A stretch of DNA of 64,000 nt from an uncultured Acidobacteriota bacterium (lineage in GTDB: Bacteria; Acidobacteriota; Terriglobia; Acidiferrales; UBA7541), in assembly GCA_963735525.1 (NCBI GenBank), contig CAVTLQ010000012.1, forward strand, positions 165,005 through 229,004, read 5' to 3'. Positions within the stretch are counted from its first letter, which is position 1, and each line of letters opens with the position of its first letter. The notes below the pieces were generated by a model that was not told the DNA's origin, ran no database searches, and saw only the letters and a list, made by a program, of their open reading frames with translations. Positions 31,388-60,027 of this stretch are shown piece after piece. A program made the translations under genes and the position numbers.

Positions 31388-31561
31388 TCATTCTTTGTCG
31401 ATGGTGGCCTCGTCCACGAGCATGACGGGAATTTCGTCGCGCACGGGATAGACGCGGCGGCAGGACTGGCATTTCAGGCCGGAGTTGTCTGGCGTTGGCT
31501 TGACCGGCGCCTTGCAGGCCGGGCAAACAAGAATGTCGAGCAGGTCTTGAGGGATTGGCAT
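31388..31561 (-). CDS. Trm112-family protein (57 aa, below the ORF-track cut-off)
   Basis: translated by hand: MPIPQDLLDILVCPACKAPVKPTPDNSGLKCQSCRRVYPVRDEIPVMLVDEATIDKE. Confidence 0.92.
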   Translation of the reverse strand: MPIPQDLLDILVCPACKAPVKPTPDNSGLKCQSCRRVYPVRDEIPVMLVDEATIDKE

Positions 31562-31735
31562 AGTTGGCTCCGAGGTAGCGAATGGGAACTGTAACAGAGG
31601 GGGGAGAGGAGAGTCGACAGTCGACGGTTGAAAGTTGGGCGGAGGGAGAAGAGTAGCGCCTTCCTACTGCGATCACCTGCAAAGGGTCGCTCCGTCTGCG
31701 AGGGGCTGGATTCAACACGTTTCGGTCGTAGGAAG

Positions 31736-31800
31736 ACAGACTTTTTGAGGGTCCCTTCGTTCCTCAGGGCAAGCAGGGTAAACAGGAGTGTCTGTGCCAC
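31736..31800 (-). repeat. nested composite REP-like element, copy 1
   Basis: 43-bp core at 31752-31794 is the exact reverse complement of 55091-55133. Confidence 0.9.
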
Positions 31801-32248
31801 CCCCCTCCCCCCCACCTTTTTTGGAAGTGCGGATTCTAAAGGAGTTGCGGGGAGAAATCGTGTAAGTGTTGAATCGGTTAGACTTGAAGTCGTTTGTTTT
31901 CAGTGCGGTCTCTTGTAGCTCGGAAGTGCGGATTCTAATAGGGTTAAAGTCGTTTGTTTTGATACAGATTCGTGAAGTTTTGTAAGTGCGGATTCTAAAG
32001 GAGTTGCGGGCGGGGATGCTTGGAAATCCGGATTCTAAAGAGGTTAGTGGGCGATTGGGTCTGGGAGAGTGGGTAGGTGCAGTAATGAGGTAATGAGGTA
32101 AAGAAGTAAGGAAGTAATGAGGTGAGAAGAGGAATCGGGAAGAGGTTTGGAGCGCGGACATAGAGGACCTTTCCAGCGTCCTCCGCGCTTGGACAATAAT
32201 GAGGGAGATAACACATGAGGTACGACTCAGTCAAGACAATTCTAGGGG
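31801..32248 (-). repeat. non-coding box-array module, copy 1
   Basis: 22-bp boxes (plus strand AAGTGCGGATTCTAAAGGAGTT and variants) at 31825, 31864, 31924, 31984, 32024; octamer array 32082-32121; TTGACT-N17-TTATCT on the minus strand at 32234-32206. Confidence 0.85.
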
Positions 32249-32502
32249 CTTTCCAGCTGGGCGGCAAGAGGTGTGCCGGGGTTGACGCCGAGTGGGGCAA
32301 GCCCGCGCCCTACAGGGATGAGGAGGAGGGCTTGCGGCACGGCTAAAAGCCGTGCCCTCCCGACAACCAGGCTGTGCCACGGGGGCTTTTTTCGGCAGGC
32401 GGTGGAGGGGTGCCCTGACGGTTTGGGGTGGATGGGCGTCAGAAGCTGGTGGGTTGGGGAACCGGCGGGGGCTCCCCTTCGTAGTGTAGTGAGGGGTGCA
32501 GC

Positions 32503-35061
32503 ATGCAAAGCCTGGCGGGGAATTTTCGGTACGCGTTGCGACAGTTCCGGATGGCGCCTGTTTTTACGGCGGCGGCGGTACTTACGCTGGCCTTGGGAAT
32601 CGGGGGAACCACGGCGATATTCACGTTGATCCATGCGGTGATGCTGAGGTCGCTGCCGGTGGCCGATCCGGGGAGGCTGTACCGGGTGGGAGAAGGCGAC
32701 GAATGCTGCGTGGAGGGGGGTCCCCAGGACGAGTGGGGGATGGTTTCGTACGCCTTGTACGAGCGGCTGAAGACGGAAACGCCGGAATTTGAACAAGTTG
32801 CAGCGTTCCAAGCAGGACGCTGGCGGATGGCGGTACGCCGCCAAGGCACGGAAAGTGTCGCCAGACCGTTGCGCGCCGAGTATGTCAGCGGGACTTACTT
32901 CTCCCTGCTTGGAGTGGGCGTGCTTGGCGGACGCGTGTTCACACCGGAGGATGACAAGCCCTCCGCCCCGCCAGCCCTGGTCCTGAGCCATCGCGCTTGG
33001 CAGACCATCTATGCCGGCGATCCCTCCGTGGTGGGCGCGACGTTCATCGTCGAAGGTCATCCGTTTACCGCGATCGGTGTCGCCCCAGCCGGCTTCTTCG
33101 GCGAAACCCTGCAAAGCGACCCGCCCGATTTGTGGGTTCCTCTCCAACAAGAACCCATGATCGCCGGAGAAGGCTCCTTGCTGCATCAGTCGATCTCCGC
33201 GTGGCTGCGGATGATGGGCCGGTTGAAGCCGGGAGCAACGACTGCGGGAATGTCTCCGCGGCTGACCGGAGTGTTGCGGCAGTGGTTACTAAACGATTCG
33301 GGATATCCCCCGAACTGGATGTCGGACGTTGAGAGATTGTTGCCCAAGCAAGTGCTCAACGTCGTTCCGGCCGGAGCAGGCATAGCGGTGATGAAAGAGG
33401 AGTACGGCAGGAGCCTGCAAATTCTGATGGCCGTATGCGGTCTGGTGCTGCTGATCGCGTGCGCCAATGTGGCCAACCTGCTGCTGGCCCGGGCGGTCGG
33501 GCGGCGCGGGCAAACCGCGGTGCGGCTGGCGATCGGAGCAACGCCGAGGCAAATCATTACCGAGGCGCTGACCGAGAGCGTGCTGCTGGCGATTGGCGGC
33601 GGAATCGCGGGGCTTGTGGTGGCCATGGCGGCGGCTAAGCTGCTGCTGGCGTTGGCCTTCCACGACGCGCACTTTTTGCCGATCAGCACGGCGCCGTCGC
33701 TGCTGGTGCTGGGCTTTGCGTTTGTTCTGTCGCTGCTGACGGGAATTATTTTCGGGGCCGCGCCGGCGTGGTTCGCGACGCGGACGGACCCGGCGGAGGC
33801 ACTGCGGGGATCGGGCCGCGGCACCAGCGACCGATCTACATTCGCGCGCAAGGCGCTGCTGGTGGTACAGGCGACTTTGTCGGTGGTGCTTGTCGCCGGG
33901 GCCACCATGCTGGGCCGAAGCCTGAACAAGCTCGAGCATCAGGACTTTGGGTACCAGGTCAAGGGACGCATTGAGGTTGACCTGCATAACCCGCCGGCAA
34001 GCTATACGCTTGCGCAACTGATGGCGCTGTACCGGCGAATGGAAGAAGAGCTCAATCACATGCCCGGCGTGCAGGGAGCCGGTTTGGCGATGTACAACCC
34101 GCTCACCGACAACTGGGGCGAGCTGATCATGGTGGCGGGCCATCCTCCCGGCAAGATGGATGAGGAATCCGGCGCGTCGTGGGACCGCGTGAGCGCCAAC
34201 TATTTGCAGAACTGGGGCATGCCGATCTTGCGCGGGCGATATTTCACCGCTGCGGACACGGAAACCACCGAGCCGGTGGCGATCGTCAATGAGGCCTTTG
34301 TGAAGCGCTTCTTCAAGAGCGACGAGGATCCGATGGATCGGCACTTCGGTCTGGATGTGCCCGAGCTGGCCAACACGTTCCGCATCGTGGGCGTGGTGCG
34401 AGACGCCAAATTCGCGGGCTGGGGACTGCAGCGCCCCGCGCGGCCGATGTTCTATGTGCCGCTGGCTCAAAACGTGGCGTATACAAACGAGTTGATGAAG
34501 AAACTGGAACTGCGCTCGCATTTCATCCAGGGAATCATGCTGGTGACAAATCTGTCGCCCGGCGTGTTGGAGCCGCAGTTGAACCGGTTGCTGGCGGAAA
34601 TCGATCCCAACTTGACGATGACCAGCGTGCGGAGCATGCAGCAACAGGTGGAACTTTCCTTCGATCAGGAGCGCGCCGTAGCCAGCCTGGCCGGCTTGTT
34701 CGGGGTCGTGGCGCTGGTGCTGGCGGCGATCGGTTTGTACGGCGTGACGGCGTACAGCGTTGCGCAGCGGACCAACGAGATCGGCATCCGCATGGCGCTG
34801 GGCGCGGATCGGACGCGCGTGATGCAACTGGTGCTTAGCGGGGCGTTCCGGCGCGTGGTGATCGGGTTGATCTTGGGGCTGCCACTGGCCGTCGGAGCTG
34901 GGCGGTTGATCGCGGCGCAACTTTACGGCGTTTCGTCTTGGGATCCACTGGCACTGGGCCTGGCTGCGGGGGCGCTGGCGATTTGCTCTTTTTTCGCGGC
35001 GATCATCCCGGCGAACCGGGCGGCGTCGATTTCGCCAGTGGAAGCTTTGCGGATTGAGTGA
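32503..35061 (+). CDS. ABC transporter permease, duplicated MacB/FtsX type (acidobacterial ADOP family)
   Basis: FRYALRQF...LTLALGIGGTTAIF, LLIACANVANLLLAR, QRTNEIGIRMALGA, ISPVEALRIE; no ATPase gene adjacent. Confidence 0.93.
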   Translation: MQSLAGNFRYALRQFRMAPVFTAAAVLTLALGIGGTTAIFTLIHAVMLRSLPVADPGRLYRVGEGDECCVEGGPQDEWGMVSYALYERLKTETPEFEQVAAFQAGRWRMAVRRQGTESVARPLRAEYVSGTYFSLLGVGVLGGRVFTPEDDKPSAPPALVLSHRAWQTIYAGDPSVVGATFIVEGHPFTAIGVAPAGFFGETLQSDPPDLWVPLQQEPMIAGEGSLLHQSISAWLRMMGRLKPGATTAGMSPRLTGVLRQWLLNDSGYPPNWMSDVERLLPKQVLNVVPAGAGIAVMKEEYGRSLQILMAVCGLVLLIACANVANLLLARAVGRRGQTAVRLAIGATPRQIITEALTESVLLAIGGGIAGLVVAMAAAKLLLALAFHDAHFLPISTAPSLLVLGFAFVLSLLTGIIFGAAPAWFATRTDPAEALRGSGRGTSDRSTFARKALLVVQATLSVVLVAGATMLGRSLNKLEHQDFGYQVKGRIEVDLHNPPASYTLAQLMALYRRMEEELNHMPGVQGAGLAMYNPLTDNWGELIMVAGHPPGKMDEESGASWDRVSANYLQNWGMPILRGRYFTAADTETTEPVAIVNEAFVKRFFKSDEDPMDRHFGLDVPELANTFRIVGVVRDAKFAGWGLQRPARPMFYVPLAQNVAYTNELMKKLELRSHFIQGIMLVTNLSPGVLEPQLNRLLAEIDPNLTMTSVRSMQQQVELSFDQERAVASLAGLFGVVALVLAAIGLYGVTAYSVAQRTNEIGIRMALGADRTRVMQLVLSGAFRRVVIGLILGLPLAVGAGRLIAAQLYGVSSWDPLALGLAAGALAICSFFAAIIPANRAASISPVEALRIE

Positions 35062-58197: not shown

Positions 58198-58670
58198 CCC
58201 TTTAGATTTTCCTTGACAAATGTTAACTAGTATGGTATGTTATCCATGTCGACTTGCAGTGCACTATCTAGGCGGCATCCTCAGCTTTCCCGTCGGGCCG
58301 TTCCCCAGATCGTCCACGCAACTTCTGTAGGTTCGGAGCATTACGGCACAGGCGGCGAAAGCCCCATGGATTCACACGGCCACAACACCTGCTGCGCGCA
58401 GGCCATCGGCTCCTCAACGTTCCAACGTGCAAACCTGCCAACCTGCAAACATGCCTTAAGTCCTTTAGAATCCACTCTTACAAGAAATGCTCGCACCTGC
58501 CCCAATTCTCGACAAATAACTCCTTTAGAATCAAAAGGCGAGTTTGCTAAGTGCTTTAGATCTCACTCTTACGAAAAAAGCGCCTGTAACTCCTTTATTT
58601 CTCACTCTTACAAAATCATTGGACTTAAAGTCCCATCGAATCACACTCTTACGAAAAAAGGTGGAGGGAG
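58198..58670 (+). repeat. non-coding box-array module, copy 2
   Basis: boxes AAGTCCTTTAGAATCCACTCTT and variants at 58458, 58518, 58549, 58588, 58628; octamer array 58415-58454; ends CTTACGAAAAAAGGTGGAGGG. Confidence 0.85.
58213..58241 (+). promoter_or_regulatory. sigma70-type promoter heading module copy 2
   Basis: TTGACA-N17-TATGTT with TG extended -10, in an AT-rich patch. Confidence 0.75.
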
Positions 58671-58750
58671 CGTGAACGGTTTTTGTCCTCTACTTCCTCT
58701 ACCTCCTTCACGTCTTGCTCCCTTACTTCATCATTTCTCTTGAGGAAACC

Positions 58751-59257
58751 ATGACCAAACAAACGCAAGACCAATCTCGCTGTCAGCACCATGACGTTCT
58801 GAACCGCCGCTGCCGTATGCCTCGCATCGACACCCACCCCGCCTTCTGCTATACCCACTCCAAGGCTGAGCGCGAAGTCCGTGATGCCGAATTCCGCCGC
58901 AACAGGCGTGCTACCTACACGGGCAACTTCTACACCGCCACGGACGTGAACCAAGCTCTCGGCGCCGTTTTCACCTTGCTTGCCCAAGACCGCATCCCCG
59001 CCCGTGAAGCCGCCGTTCTCGCCTCCATCTCCCGGCTGCTTCTGCAATCCATCGAGGGCGTCAGGTACGAAGTCCAGGTTGCCCTTGGCTTTGTGGCTAT
59101 GAGGACCTGGTCCGCAACGTCATCAATCCTCCCCAAAGGAATCTCCCAGCTGCCTCGAACCCTTCCGGCAAAGCCTCGCCGGAAGCTGCTGCTCCCGTCG
59201 AAGCATCCGTCTCGCGCCCCACAACTGGCGCGACCCACGAACCCTCGTGTACGATGA
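58751..59257 (+). CDS. uncharacterised protein with N-terminal C-x9-C-x11-C-x2-H putative zinc finger
   Basis: GAGG RBS; [27 protein letters not shown] then helical [39 protein letters not shown]; true end may be 59286 via an indel near 59095. Confidence 0.7.
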
Positions 59258-59282
59258 ACCCCAGCCATTCCAAGGAGAGTTC

Positions 59283-59811
59283 ATGACACGACCCGCAGGA
59301 ACGTATGCCGTTTTTGAAACCTCGCAGGGCAACATTGTCATCCGCTTGCTCGAGAAGGAAGCGCCAAAGACCGTCGCCAACTTCGTTGGCTTGGCCGAGG
59401 GCGCGAAGGAATTCACCGACGAACGCACCGGCCAGAAGCAAAAGAAAAACTATTACGACGGCTTGACCTTTCATCGCGTAATTCCGGATTTCATGATTCA
59501 GGGCGGATGCCCGCGCGGCGATGGCCGCGGCGGACCCGGCTACACCTTCCCCGACGAGTTTCATCCGTCGCTCAAGCACTCCAAAGCCGGCAAGCTCTCC
59601 ATGGCCAACGCCGGACCCGGCACCAACGGCAGCCAGTTTTTCATCACCGTGGCGGCCACCCCCTGGCTCGACAACAAGCACACCATTTTCGGCGAAGTGG
59701 TCGAAGGCCAGGACGTCGCGGACAAAATTTCCAAGCTGCCTCGCGACGCAAGCGATCGGCCCGCGCACTCCGGTGACGCTGCAAAAAGTCCGCATCGAGC
59801 GCATCGCTTAA
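59283..59811 (+). CDS. cyclophilin-type peptidyl-prolyl isomerase; apparent frameshift near 59760
   Basis: [50 protein letters not shown]; C-terminus [15 protein letters not shown] in a shifted frame. Confidence 0.93.
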
Positions 59812-60027
59812 GGCCGCACCACGATGTCGGCCTCGCCGCCGGTCGCGTCACGCAATGTAGGCGCTGGGCTTCAGCCCGGCGTCCGCAGCCAGTCGCTGTA
59901 GCCGCCCTCTTTTACCCTGAGCGGAAACGCGAAGGGTCAGAGGGCGGGGTTTAGAGGAGGCTCCAAGCACCATCAACACGACGTGCAAATGTTCCGAGAG
60001 TCGCCGACACCGGCATGGTGAAAGCCA

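Follow-up and report, generated by a model that had tools for sequence, protein, structure and literature searches.

The DNA considered here, a stretch of 64,000 nt from an uncultured soil Acidobacteriota bacterium (the window, to which all unlabelled positions refer), contains on its minus strand, between 32248 and 31800, a short element composed of a promoter, a variable leader, an array of five 22-bp boxes, and a closing G-tract. This element is one copy of a dispersed family of modular repeats, and the chances seem about even that it functions at the level of DNA, its translation serving only to keep transcription running to a G-tract that would be recombinogenic. The family is present in many copies of a conserved architecture; its frames are selected to stay open with no selection on the peptide, and its RNA is unfolded. 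Relatives contain empty sites as well as an array swapped behind an orthologous promoter, array types are genome-specific, and a zinc-finger gene accompanies a minority of copies. Judged from these comparisons, the best reading is that of a selfish cassette family whose copies are acquired, lost, and exchanged from site to site. Below, contigs of the host genome (G000) are labelled C, related genomes G, and fetched loci L.

Architecture of the element and its family

Read on the minus strand, the element starts with CCCCTAGAATTGTCTTGAC (32248-32230) and has a σ70-type promoter (32206..32234), in which a -35 sequence, TTGACT (32234-32229), and a -10 sequence, TTATCT (32211-32206), are separated by 17 nt. 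The same promoter geometry is present in 15 of the 17 sister copies found elsewhere in the genome. Comparison of the sister copies indicates that the leader varies from copy to copy, and the five octamer low-complexity repeats within it (32082..32121, minus) lie outside the conserved core. The array, also on the minus strand, consists of box 1 (32024..32045), whose frame differs from that of boxes 2-5; boxes 2 (31984..32005) and 5 (31825..31846), which match the consensus exactly; box 3 (31924..31945); and box 4 (31864..31885), the most degenerate of the five. With starts at 32045, 32005, 31945, 31885, and 31846, the boxes follow periods of 40, 60, 60, and 39 bp. Inverted half-boxes, conserved across copies, stand back to back with box 3 (31947..31960, minus) and box 4 (31887..31900, minus), and their GACTT-AA junctions lie at 31951-31941 and 31891-31881. 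The right end (31800..31822, minus) is formed by an A-run and an interrupted G-tract, G2-T-G7-A-G6, on the non-template strand. An initial annotation of 31801..32248 had listed these features, and all are present on the minus strand, base for base. Its five boxes and their periods stand as well, but the 22-mer that it quoted is exact in only 2 of the 5, the others having 3, 4, and more than 6 mismatches.

Within the host genome (5.9 Mb, 24 contigs), the 22-mer box has 85 matches at up to 4 mismatches, grouped in 27 clusters. An order-3 Markov simulation of 3 Mb gives 0 matches, and thus the boxes do not arise by chance. The lattice of the window copy recurs in 18 clusters, 14 of them with periods of 40/60/60/39, two with 40/59/60/39, and two short of one box. 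This genome-wide count bears out the annotation's proposal of a dispersed multi-copy family with a conserved architecture. The window-type copies, 17 of them beyond the window, have a mean pairwise identity of 0.71, and an A-rich run with an interrupted G-tract closes all 18 (G6AG6 in 9). The spacers between boxes are partly conserved by position among these copies, and two of them contain the inverted half-boxes. A guide array of the CRISPR or TIGR kind was rejected, since the spacers are not unique and no effector gene is present among the flanking genes scanned.

Elements of other array types that end in the same way raise the hand-curated total to 51. Among these is the element at 58213..58743 (plus), with a promoter at 58213-58241, a leaderless ATG at 58246, and an open frame of 165 codons that crosses its boxes and its G-end (58654-58668). 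The window copy had been taken for a second, diverged copy of this 58-kb module; instead, the two belong to different array types that have only short box matches in common (best 26 bp, 88%). Array types of different kinds are found stacked in tandem behind a single promoter at C10:405600-405900, C15:453700-454000, C17:28800-29100, and C19:49150-49600. Several other-type elements have, in place of a leaderless frame, a promoter with a GC hairpin and a U-run about 20 nt behind it, which predicts a terminated RNA of about 45 nt; such tiny-RNA-type elements lie near C4:65100-65200, C13:111700-111800, C15:453900-454050, and C23:477600-477750.

A leaderless frame maintained without selection on its peptide

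In 15 of the 17 sister copies, the -10 sequence is followed at exactly 5 nt by an ATG or GTG, and the frame reads through in all 15, including both copies with a 59-bp spacer. Of the other two sister copies, one stands behind a finger gene and one is without a convincing promoter or start. The corresponding frame of the window copy (31712..32200, minus) extends across leader, boxes, and G-tract, with 162 codons from an ATT at the leaderless position (32200, 5 nt past the -10 sequence) or 149 codons from an in-frame ATG at 32161, to a stop that ends at 31712; Pfam contains no match to it. The earlier description of this copy as gene-less and non-coding thus fails, as the open frame spans the whole array and in sister copies is a leaderless open reading frame (ORF) under frame selection.

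A wider survey covered 89 modules (18 from the host genome and 71 from outside), scored with a hand-set promoter matrix that does not include the start codon; a score of at least 10, which was required, is reached in 69. An ATG, GTG, or TTG is present at +5 in 51 of these 69, and 43 of the 51 frames are open through the last box and the G-run. The other two frames are open in 0 and 1 of the 51, and modules lacking the start are open in 5 of 18. The matrix places the -10 sequence of the window copy one base off and so scores its frame as closed; with TTATCT as the -10 sequence, the frame is open. On an independent complete chromosome, G073, 51 loci were fetched, 45 had a recognised end, and 22 were scored, with a start in 14 and an open frame in 11 of the 14. 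After pooling and de-duplication, 69 of 78 frames, related sequences rather than independent trials, are open versus 13.9 expected from shuffled leaders with a random frame, and this holds across 44 leader lengths.

The peptide shows a different pattern. In 15 gapless copies, the conserved array codons contain 22 synonymous versus 70 non-synonymous variants with no codon-position pattern, and AGA and ACT are fixed in the arrays even though only 3.5% of Arg codons are AGA and only 10.7% of Thr codons are ACT. Across 33 pairs of leaders, most of which (beyond five ungapped pairs) align poorly and with gaps, the ratio of non-synonymous to synonymous differences (pN/pS) is 0.95, and the differences fall at the three codon positions in the proportion 107/101/98. 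Furthermore, both stop-free frames of the box are in use: in the window type, box 1 differs from boxes 2-5; in a 69-bp array type, the last box is in the other frame; and the 58-kb copy mixes frames. Because the leader pN/pS is near 1, two frames are used, and the boxes are fixed at the nucleotide level, the peptide is not what is conserved.

The RNA likewise lacks a conserved structure. In 14 gapless copies, the sense RNA has a consensus fold of -0.07 kcal/mol, a mean z of +0.18, and no compensatory pairs. The structured RNA implied by the initial annotation is therefore not borne out, the collected copies having neither a conserved fold nor covariation. In leader and array the sense RNA has a C/G ratio of about 2, and a C-rich composition is that of a Rho loading site. 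Among sequencing runs, none of RNA is listed as containing this DNA, and a single DNA run, with a share of 0.07, was uninformative.

The boxes as probable sites on double-stranded DNA

In addition to the inverted half-boxes, other array types contain whole inverted boxes, and inverted copies of this kind point to the boxes being sites on double-stranded DNA. The boxes are similar to the E. coli IHF consensus, WATCAR-N4-TTR, but do not conform to it. No exact match to it is found in the 18 window-type copies; in the 51 modules there are 4, compared with 0.9 expected and a shuffle maximum of 4. The dominant spacer between half-sites is 3 nt rather than 4 nt (49 versus 4). The host genome encodes 4 HU/IHF genes.

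Boxes are also present in two viral contigs. A phage contig (L285:2050-2100) contains an exact 22-mer of a sister type after a G-run, with what we take to be an HNH gene before the G-run and box and small and large terminase-like genes after them. A viral contig of 45 kb (L015:2930-3100) has direct repeats, which presumably resemble integrase arm sites, followed at the contig end by two window-type boxes and a G-rich end. Phages employ host bending proteins at such places, so a host bending factor is predicted as a likely ligand of the boxes, alongside or instead of the finger protein discussed below. Elsewhere, 50,697 phage records contain no match, and 12 plasmid records contain short matches to the octamer or a spacer only. 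In IMG/VR, the 22-mer is found in 2 contigs and a 16-mer has 19 matches, with module context only in L015; two other patterns, one of them for the full module end, have 0 matches there. A few solitary boxes without a G-run lie in intergenic DNA, and the stretch upstream of dnaA showed no box. KOPS have the sequence GGGNAGGG; a polarity signal of this kind was rejected, as 23 of 46 elements on G073 are co-oriented with the replication fork when the origin is taken at dnaA; the GC skew of the host genome is too patchy to serve for this.

Such findings also bear on the idea that the elements serve the host as nucleoid arrays that organise the chromosome, with boxes acting as phased IHF/HU-type sites, about one element per 100 kb, whose occupancy would be switched by transcription. 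The even scatter of elements on the complete chromosome fits this idea, as does the period of 39-40 bp, which is near the IHF footprint. The same 22-mer in the phage locus L285 and beside the arm-like repeats of L015 (features that we name by presumption), the excess of exact IHF sites, the 4 HU/IHF genes, and the solitary intergenic boxes are also in keeping with it. However, boxes of this type number just 0-1 in many near-complete genomes of the genus, the sites are not conserved among relatives, the dominant spacer is 3 nt rather than 4 nt, and selection on the frame is left unexplained. We consider such arrays unlikely.

The associated zinc-finger protein

A gene for a CCCH zinc finger with a helical hairpin (58751..59257, plus) starts 8 nt past the stop of the leaderless frame in the 58-kb element. 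Its family is unnamed and contains 2,646 clusters (50% identity) at E 0.001 or better. Within 135 sequences, the residues C11, C21, C33, and H36 of a C-x9-C-x11-C-x2-H motif are invariant, and a helical hairpin is predicted beside the finger (model pLDDT 82). The only recurrent match is weak, that to the Mcm10 zf-primase (25 of 135 members, best E 1.2e-4; PDB 7y01, E 0.2). In the Atlas, the neighbours of the finger are unnamed Acidobacteriota clusters, followed by DUF5763 and WRC. Fold searches give a best Z of 6.4, on generic helical hairpins, with no Foldseek match at E 0.001, and sequence searches of PHROGs, NCBIfam, and PDB give nothing consistent for the finger protein. The spacing of its ligands is thus like that of the Mcm10, WRC, and DUF5763 CCCH fingers, to which family-level matches are weak, but unlike them the finger is joined to a helical hairpin that has no significant structural match. 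The WRC finger, C-x9-C-x10-C-x2-H, binds double-stranded DNA, according to the part of that report available (bioRxiv 10.1101/2025.01.03.631214).

The absence of a finger gene from the window copy, pointed out in the initial annotation, is true of most copies; the host genome has 6 such genes, 4 of them inside promoter-box-G-tract elements. In other genomes, boxes accompany 16 of the 24 finger loci listed (of 30 scanned), and a finger gene is present in 26 of 27 box-rich genomes and 16 of 27 box-poor ones. It is plausible that the window copy is served in trans by a finger protein that would bind its boxes. Distant homologues at L271, L272, and L275, which represent another family of the class, have box-like sites and a G-run upstream, two of them with exact IHF-consensus spacing. 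Past about residue 113, the C-terminal part of the protein encoded at 58751-59257 leaves its homologues and resembles them in another frame; from the sequence, this gene looks frameshifted, through either a real mutation or an assembly error. The adjacent cyclophilin frame (59247-59954, plus) extends about 60 codons beyond its Pfam domain (22-174 of 235), with a possible frameshift near 59760.

Distribution, turnover, and ends

Of 112 matches in a pattern search of GTDB genomes, the 80 listed belong to Ca. Acidiferrum/Acidoferrum, to uncultured Acidobacteriota, and to a few others. Within the genus, the boxes number 0-166 per genome (61 genomes) and occur as genome-specific variants, and the finger genes number 0-13. 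In a phylum-wide draw of 150 other genomes, 1 has more than 4 boxes. These sequence surveys place almost all of the family in a single Acidobacteriota genus.

Particular sites are occupied in one genome and not in another. The window copy lies upstream of Trm112. Of the 11 closest loci whose upstream sequence is long enough (88-96% amino acid identity), 10 contain no module there and the 11th has a different type. Among 42 loci, the window's type precedes Trm112 only in the window itself, and G001 has yet another type at this position. The comparison of this interval in relatives thus yields module-free loci but not an exact empty allele, as the upstream gene differs among relatives. Several unrelated genes lie just upstream of Trm112-pfkB in close relatives (31561-32503; L288-L299, L369-L373), and on sequence grounds this position is a hot spot for insertion or rearrangement independent of the module. 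At the thiC site, the flanking genes are about 190 bp apart with no module in G311 and about 770 bp apart here, with the same flanks; the empty allele is too diverged to place the breakpoints. At the ispG site, flanks and promoter are the same in G268, but the array there is of the 58-kb type and its frame is closed; by comparison of the two loci, this is a cassette swap behind an orthologous promoter. Four outside loci share the downstream gene with a copy in the host genome, and the array differs in all four; at two of them it is closer to paralogs in the same genome (0.81, 0.64-0.87) than to the ortholog (0.64, 0.59). In G049, a finger element of 1.37 kb recurs at a second, unrelated site, with 98.7% identity over 1,150 bp and 96.9% over 225 bp and no target duplication, and one of these duplicates appears to carry the last codons of the gene flanking the other.

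The homology that paralogs share often opens with a CCGT-type left end, located 75-110 bp ahead of the start, and extends as far as the G-tract or GTTAAC. This hexamer, within one mismatch, follows 29 of 57 outside ends, but it follows only 2 of the 18 host copies exactly. The window copy has no inverted match longer than 8 nt between its flanking ends, the paralog ends are dissimilar to one another, and its only direct repeat, of 9 nt, is part of flanking repeats that resemble repetitive extragenic palindromic (REP) sequences; no target duplication was found. With many intergenic copies, a patchy distribution among relatives, and empty sites, the family has what defines a bacterial small interspersed repeat. 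A regulon leader or attenuator was rejected: the next gene is on the same strand in 9 of 17 copies, the downstream families are unrelated in function, and the sequence just upstream of Trm112 is also present in module-free relatives. Retro-mobility, for which a single reverse transcriptase gene is available (C17:141419-142048, 441-aa open frame), is disfavoured because the duplicated units include upstream sequence, reaching up to about 100 bp from the predicted start site. In L084 and L175, insertion-sequence-like genes have removed the left part of the element.

REP-like nested hairpin repeats stand on both sides of the window copy (31745-31800 and 32290-32380, minus). They raise the question of whether RAYT transposases copy the cassette between REP hairpins in the manner of a REPIN or BIME, with promoter and frame as accessories. 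Hairpins with a GTAG foot lie beside 8 of the 18 copies versus 7% of random windows, a control that is mostly coding rather than intergenic DNA. The host genome has 5 Y1 transposase genes, one of which (G000:C15:330217-330480) is beside the C15 copy, and in G049 a gene that we take to encode a Y1 (RAYT-like) transposase lies between duplicated REPs within one copy (L199:6590-7370). The other 10 copies, however, have no GTAG-foot hairpin, and the limits of homology between paralogs are not REP feet but CCGT-type left ends on one side and the G-tract or GTTAAC on the other. Carriage by RAYT is slightly less probable even than a nucleoid role.

A proposed transcription-driven cassette

For the selfish cassette favoured here, the following steps are those that we infer. 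The promoter would give rise to an unstructured, C-rich transcript, and translation of a frame whose sequence is immaterial would shield this RNA from Rho, so that RNA polymerase would be kept running to the G-tract across boxes that may be bound by the finger protein acting in trans, by a host protein of the IHF/HU type, or by both. Once transcribed, the G-tract (G6AG6) could form an R-loop or a hybrid G-quadruplex and render the copy recombinogenic. Recombination among copies, probably gene conversion of the RecA type, would then homogenise the cassettes, swap them, and occasionally copy them to new sites.

Several observations weigh against this account. As the pooled sequences are related, the 78 frames overstate the evidence for frame selection if taken as separate trials. 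Leaderless frames are closed in 9 of the 78, including copies in G001 and G268, and in G073 several array types have no leaderless start (8 of the 22 scored); because of these closed frames and array types, translation of the modules is not universal. At the leaderless position, the window copy itself has ATT rather than ATG. Among close leaders, the five ungapped pairs have a pN equal to or somewhat below pS, so weak selection on a protein may be present, and at the other two of the four shared sites, identities to ortholog and paralog do not discriminate. The G-tract has just two long runs and is shorter or absent in some copies. Termination at mitochondrial CSB2 involves single-subunit polymerases, not bacterial RNA polymerase, in the part of PMC5027508 available, and the Neisseria pilE system needs a fixed orientation to the fork (PMC13463697, likewise in part), whereas the copies here show none (23/46). 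Finally, no mobilising enzyme was identified. In its full version, namely a transposase-free selfish element without inverted ends that spreads by gene conversion started at a CSB2-like G-tract and is served in trans by an Mcm10-like finger from a few master copies, the account is doubtful.

Less favoured readings

The strong selection for an open frame could instead mean that small basic proteins with N-P-F-R-I-R-T repeats are the product, their DNA being homogenised by gene conversion. The last box is in the FRIRT frame in 43 of 51 modules, and pN at or slightly below pS in the ungapped pairs is what such proteins would predict. Against this, box 1 and entire array types are in the other frame, rare codons are fixed, and non-synonymous variants exceed synonymous ones; in addition, the C-termini continue into unrelated flanks and lengths range from about 40 to more than 400 codons. 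A protein product is, on this evidence, improbable.

It is more improbable still that the elements are dispersed cos or pac packaging sites derived from phage, which with a small-terminase-like finger gene would feed transduction. The box and G-run between the presumed HNH and terminase genes of one phage contig suggested this, but the G-run there lies on the other side of the box and on the other strand. The phage records, as noted, contain no match and IMG/VR no full module end, and no terminase gene is present at the four in-genome paralog loci that were read. Nor were finger relatives found in viral contigs, in a search that reached close relatives only, and the finger protein matches no terminase structure significantly.

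A structured non-coding RNA family, suggested by the element's own promoter, conserved blocks, and sharp right end, is hardly credible given the unfolded RNA, the signature of a translated frame, and Rfam searches that gave nothing at gathering scores across the window nor any match to E=1 in 31500-32500; the window also contains no tRNA.

Relation to known elements

Neisseria Correia elements offer one parallel, as they carry a promoter and an IHF site and the present element has promoter-like and IHF-like sequence. They belong to the MITEs (miniature transposable elements with inverted repeats), which, like the present element, are short, multi-copy, non-autonomous, and patchily distributed (PMC3049150, in part). 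The available part of that source defines MITEs by terminal inverted repeats, target site duplication, and a highly base-paired transcript. The present element has no terminal inverted repeats and no base-paired transcript; neither inverted ends nor a target duplication was found at the window copy, and the copies are mosaic and about 71% identical. The broad class to which it belongs is that of bacterial interspersed repeats, in which, as far as that same partial account goes, the streptococcal BOX elements are nearest (PMC3049150). Both are small, interspersed, modular repeats with variable internal units that can form transcribed ORFs. BOX elements, however, fold into stem-loops and are co-transcribed with their neighbours (PMC3049150, in part), whereas this element has its own promoter, a leaderless selected frame, and a G-tract end, does not fold, and may or may not include a finger gene. 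The E. coli BIME-1/RIB elements (REP plus IHF site) are likewise dispersed IHF-like sites, often beside REP hairpins (PMC6006769, in part), but they do not share the arrays of up to 5 boxes or the promoter and frame, and the present element has no fixed REP pair and is not tied to the 3' ends of genes.

Two analogies concern the G-tract. At the gar-G-quadruplex of Neisseria pilE, a promoter transcribes into a G-rich non-template tract, gene conversion takes place among homologous copies, and it is transcription into the G-quadruplex that initiates this conversion, as the accessible portion of PMC13463697 describes. There, a single locus, a four-tract G-quadruplex, an untranslated small RNA, and dependence on orientation are involved (PMC13463697, same portion); here, there are dozens of loci, a two-run tract, a frame predicted to be translated, and no fork bias. 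The resemblance to mitochondrial CSB2 is one of sequence, an interrupted G-tract of the same size (G5AG7-G6AG9) downstream of a promoter (PMC5027508, in part). CSB2 alone involves a single-subunit polymerase and the priming of replication (PMC5027508, same part), and origin activity is unsupported for the present element.

Significance

No description of the family was found in Rfam, Pfam, NCBIfam, PHROGs, or the literature searched, which included few subscription papers; this repeat element of a soil Acidobacterium is thus apparently undescribed. It constitutes a large repeat family in an abundant soil lineage, and its frames will be called hypothetical proteins in annotation. Near-identical copies appear to break assemblies: many boxes in G064 lie within 50 bases of contig ends. 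The family may illustrate how small bacterial repeats spread and are homogenised without a transposase, a long-standing gap for repeats that have no inverted ends, and it would be a clean natural example in which selection acts on translation as such and not on the protein made.
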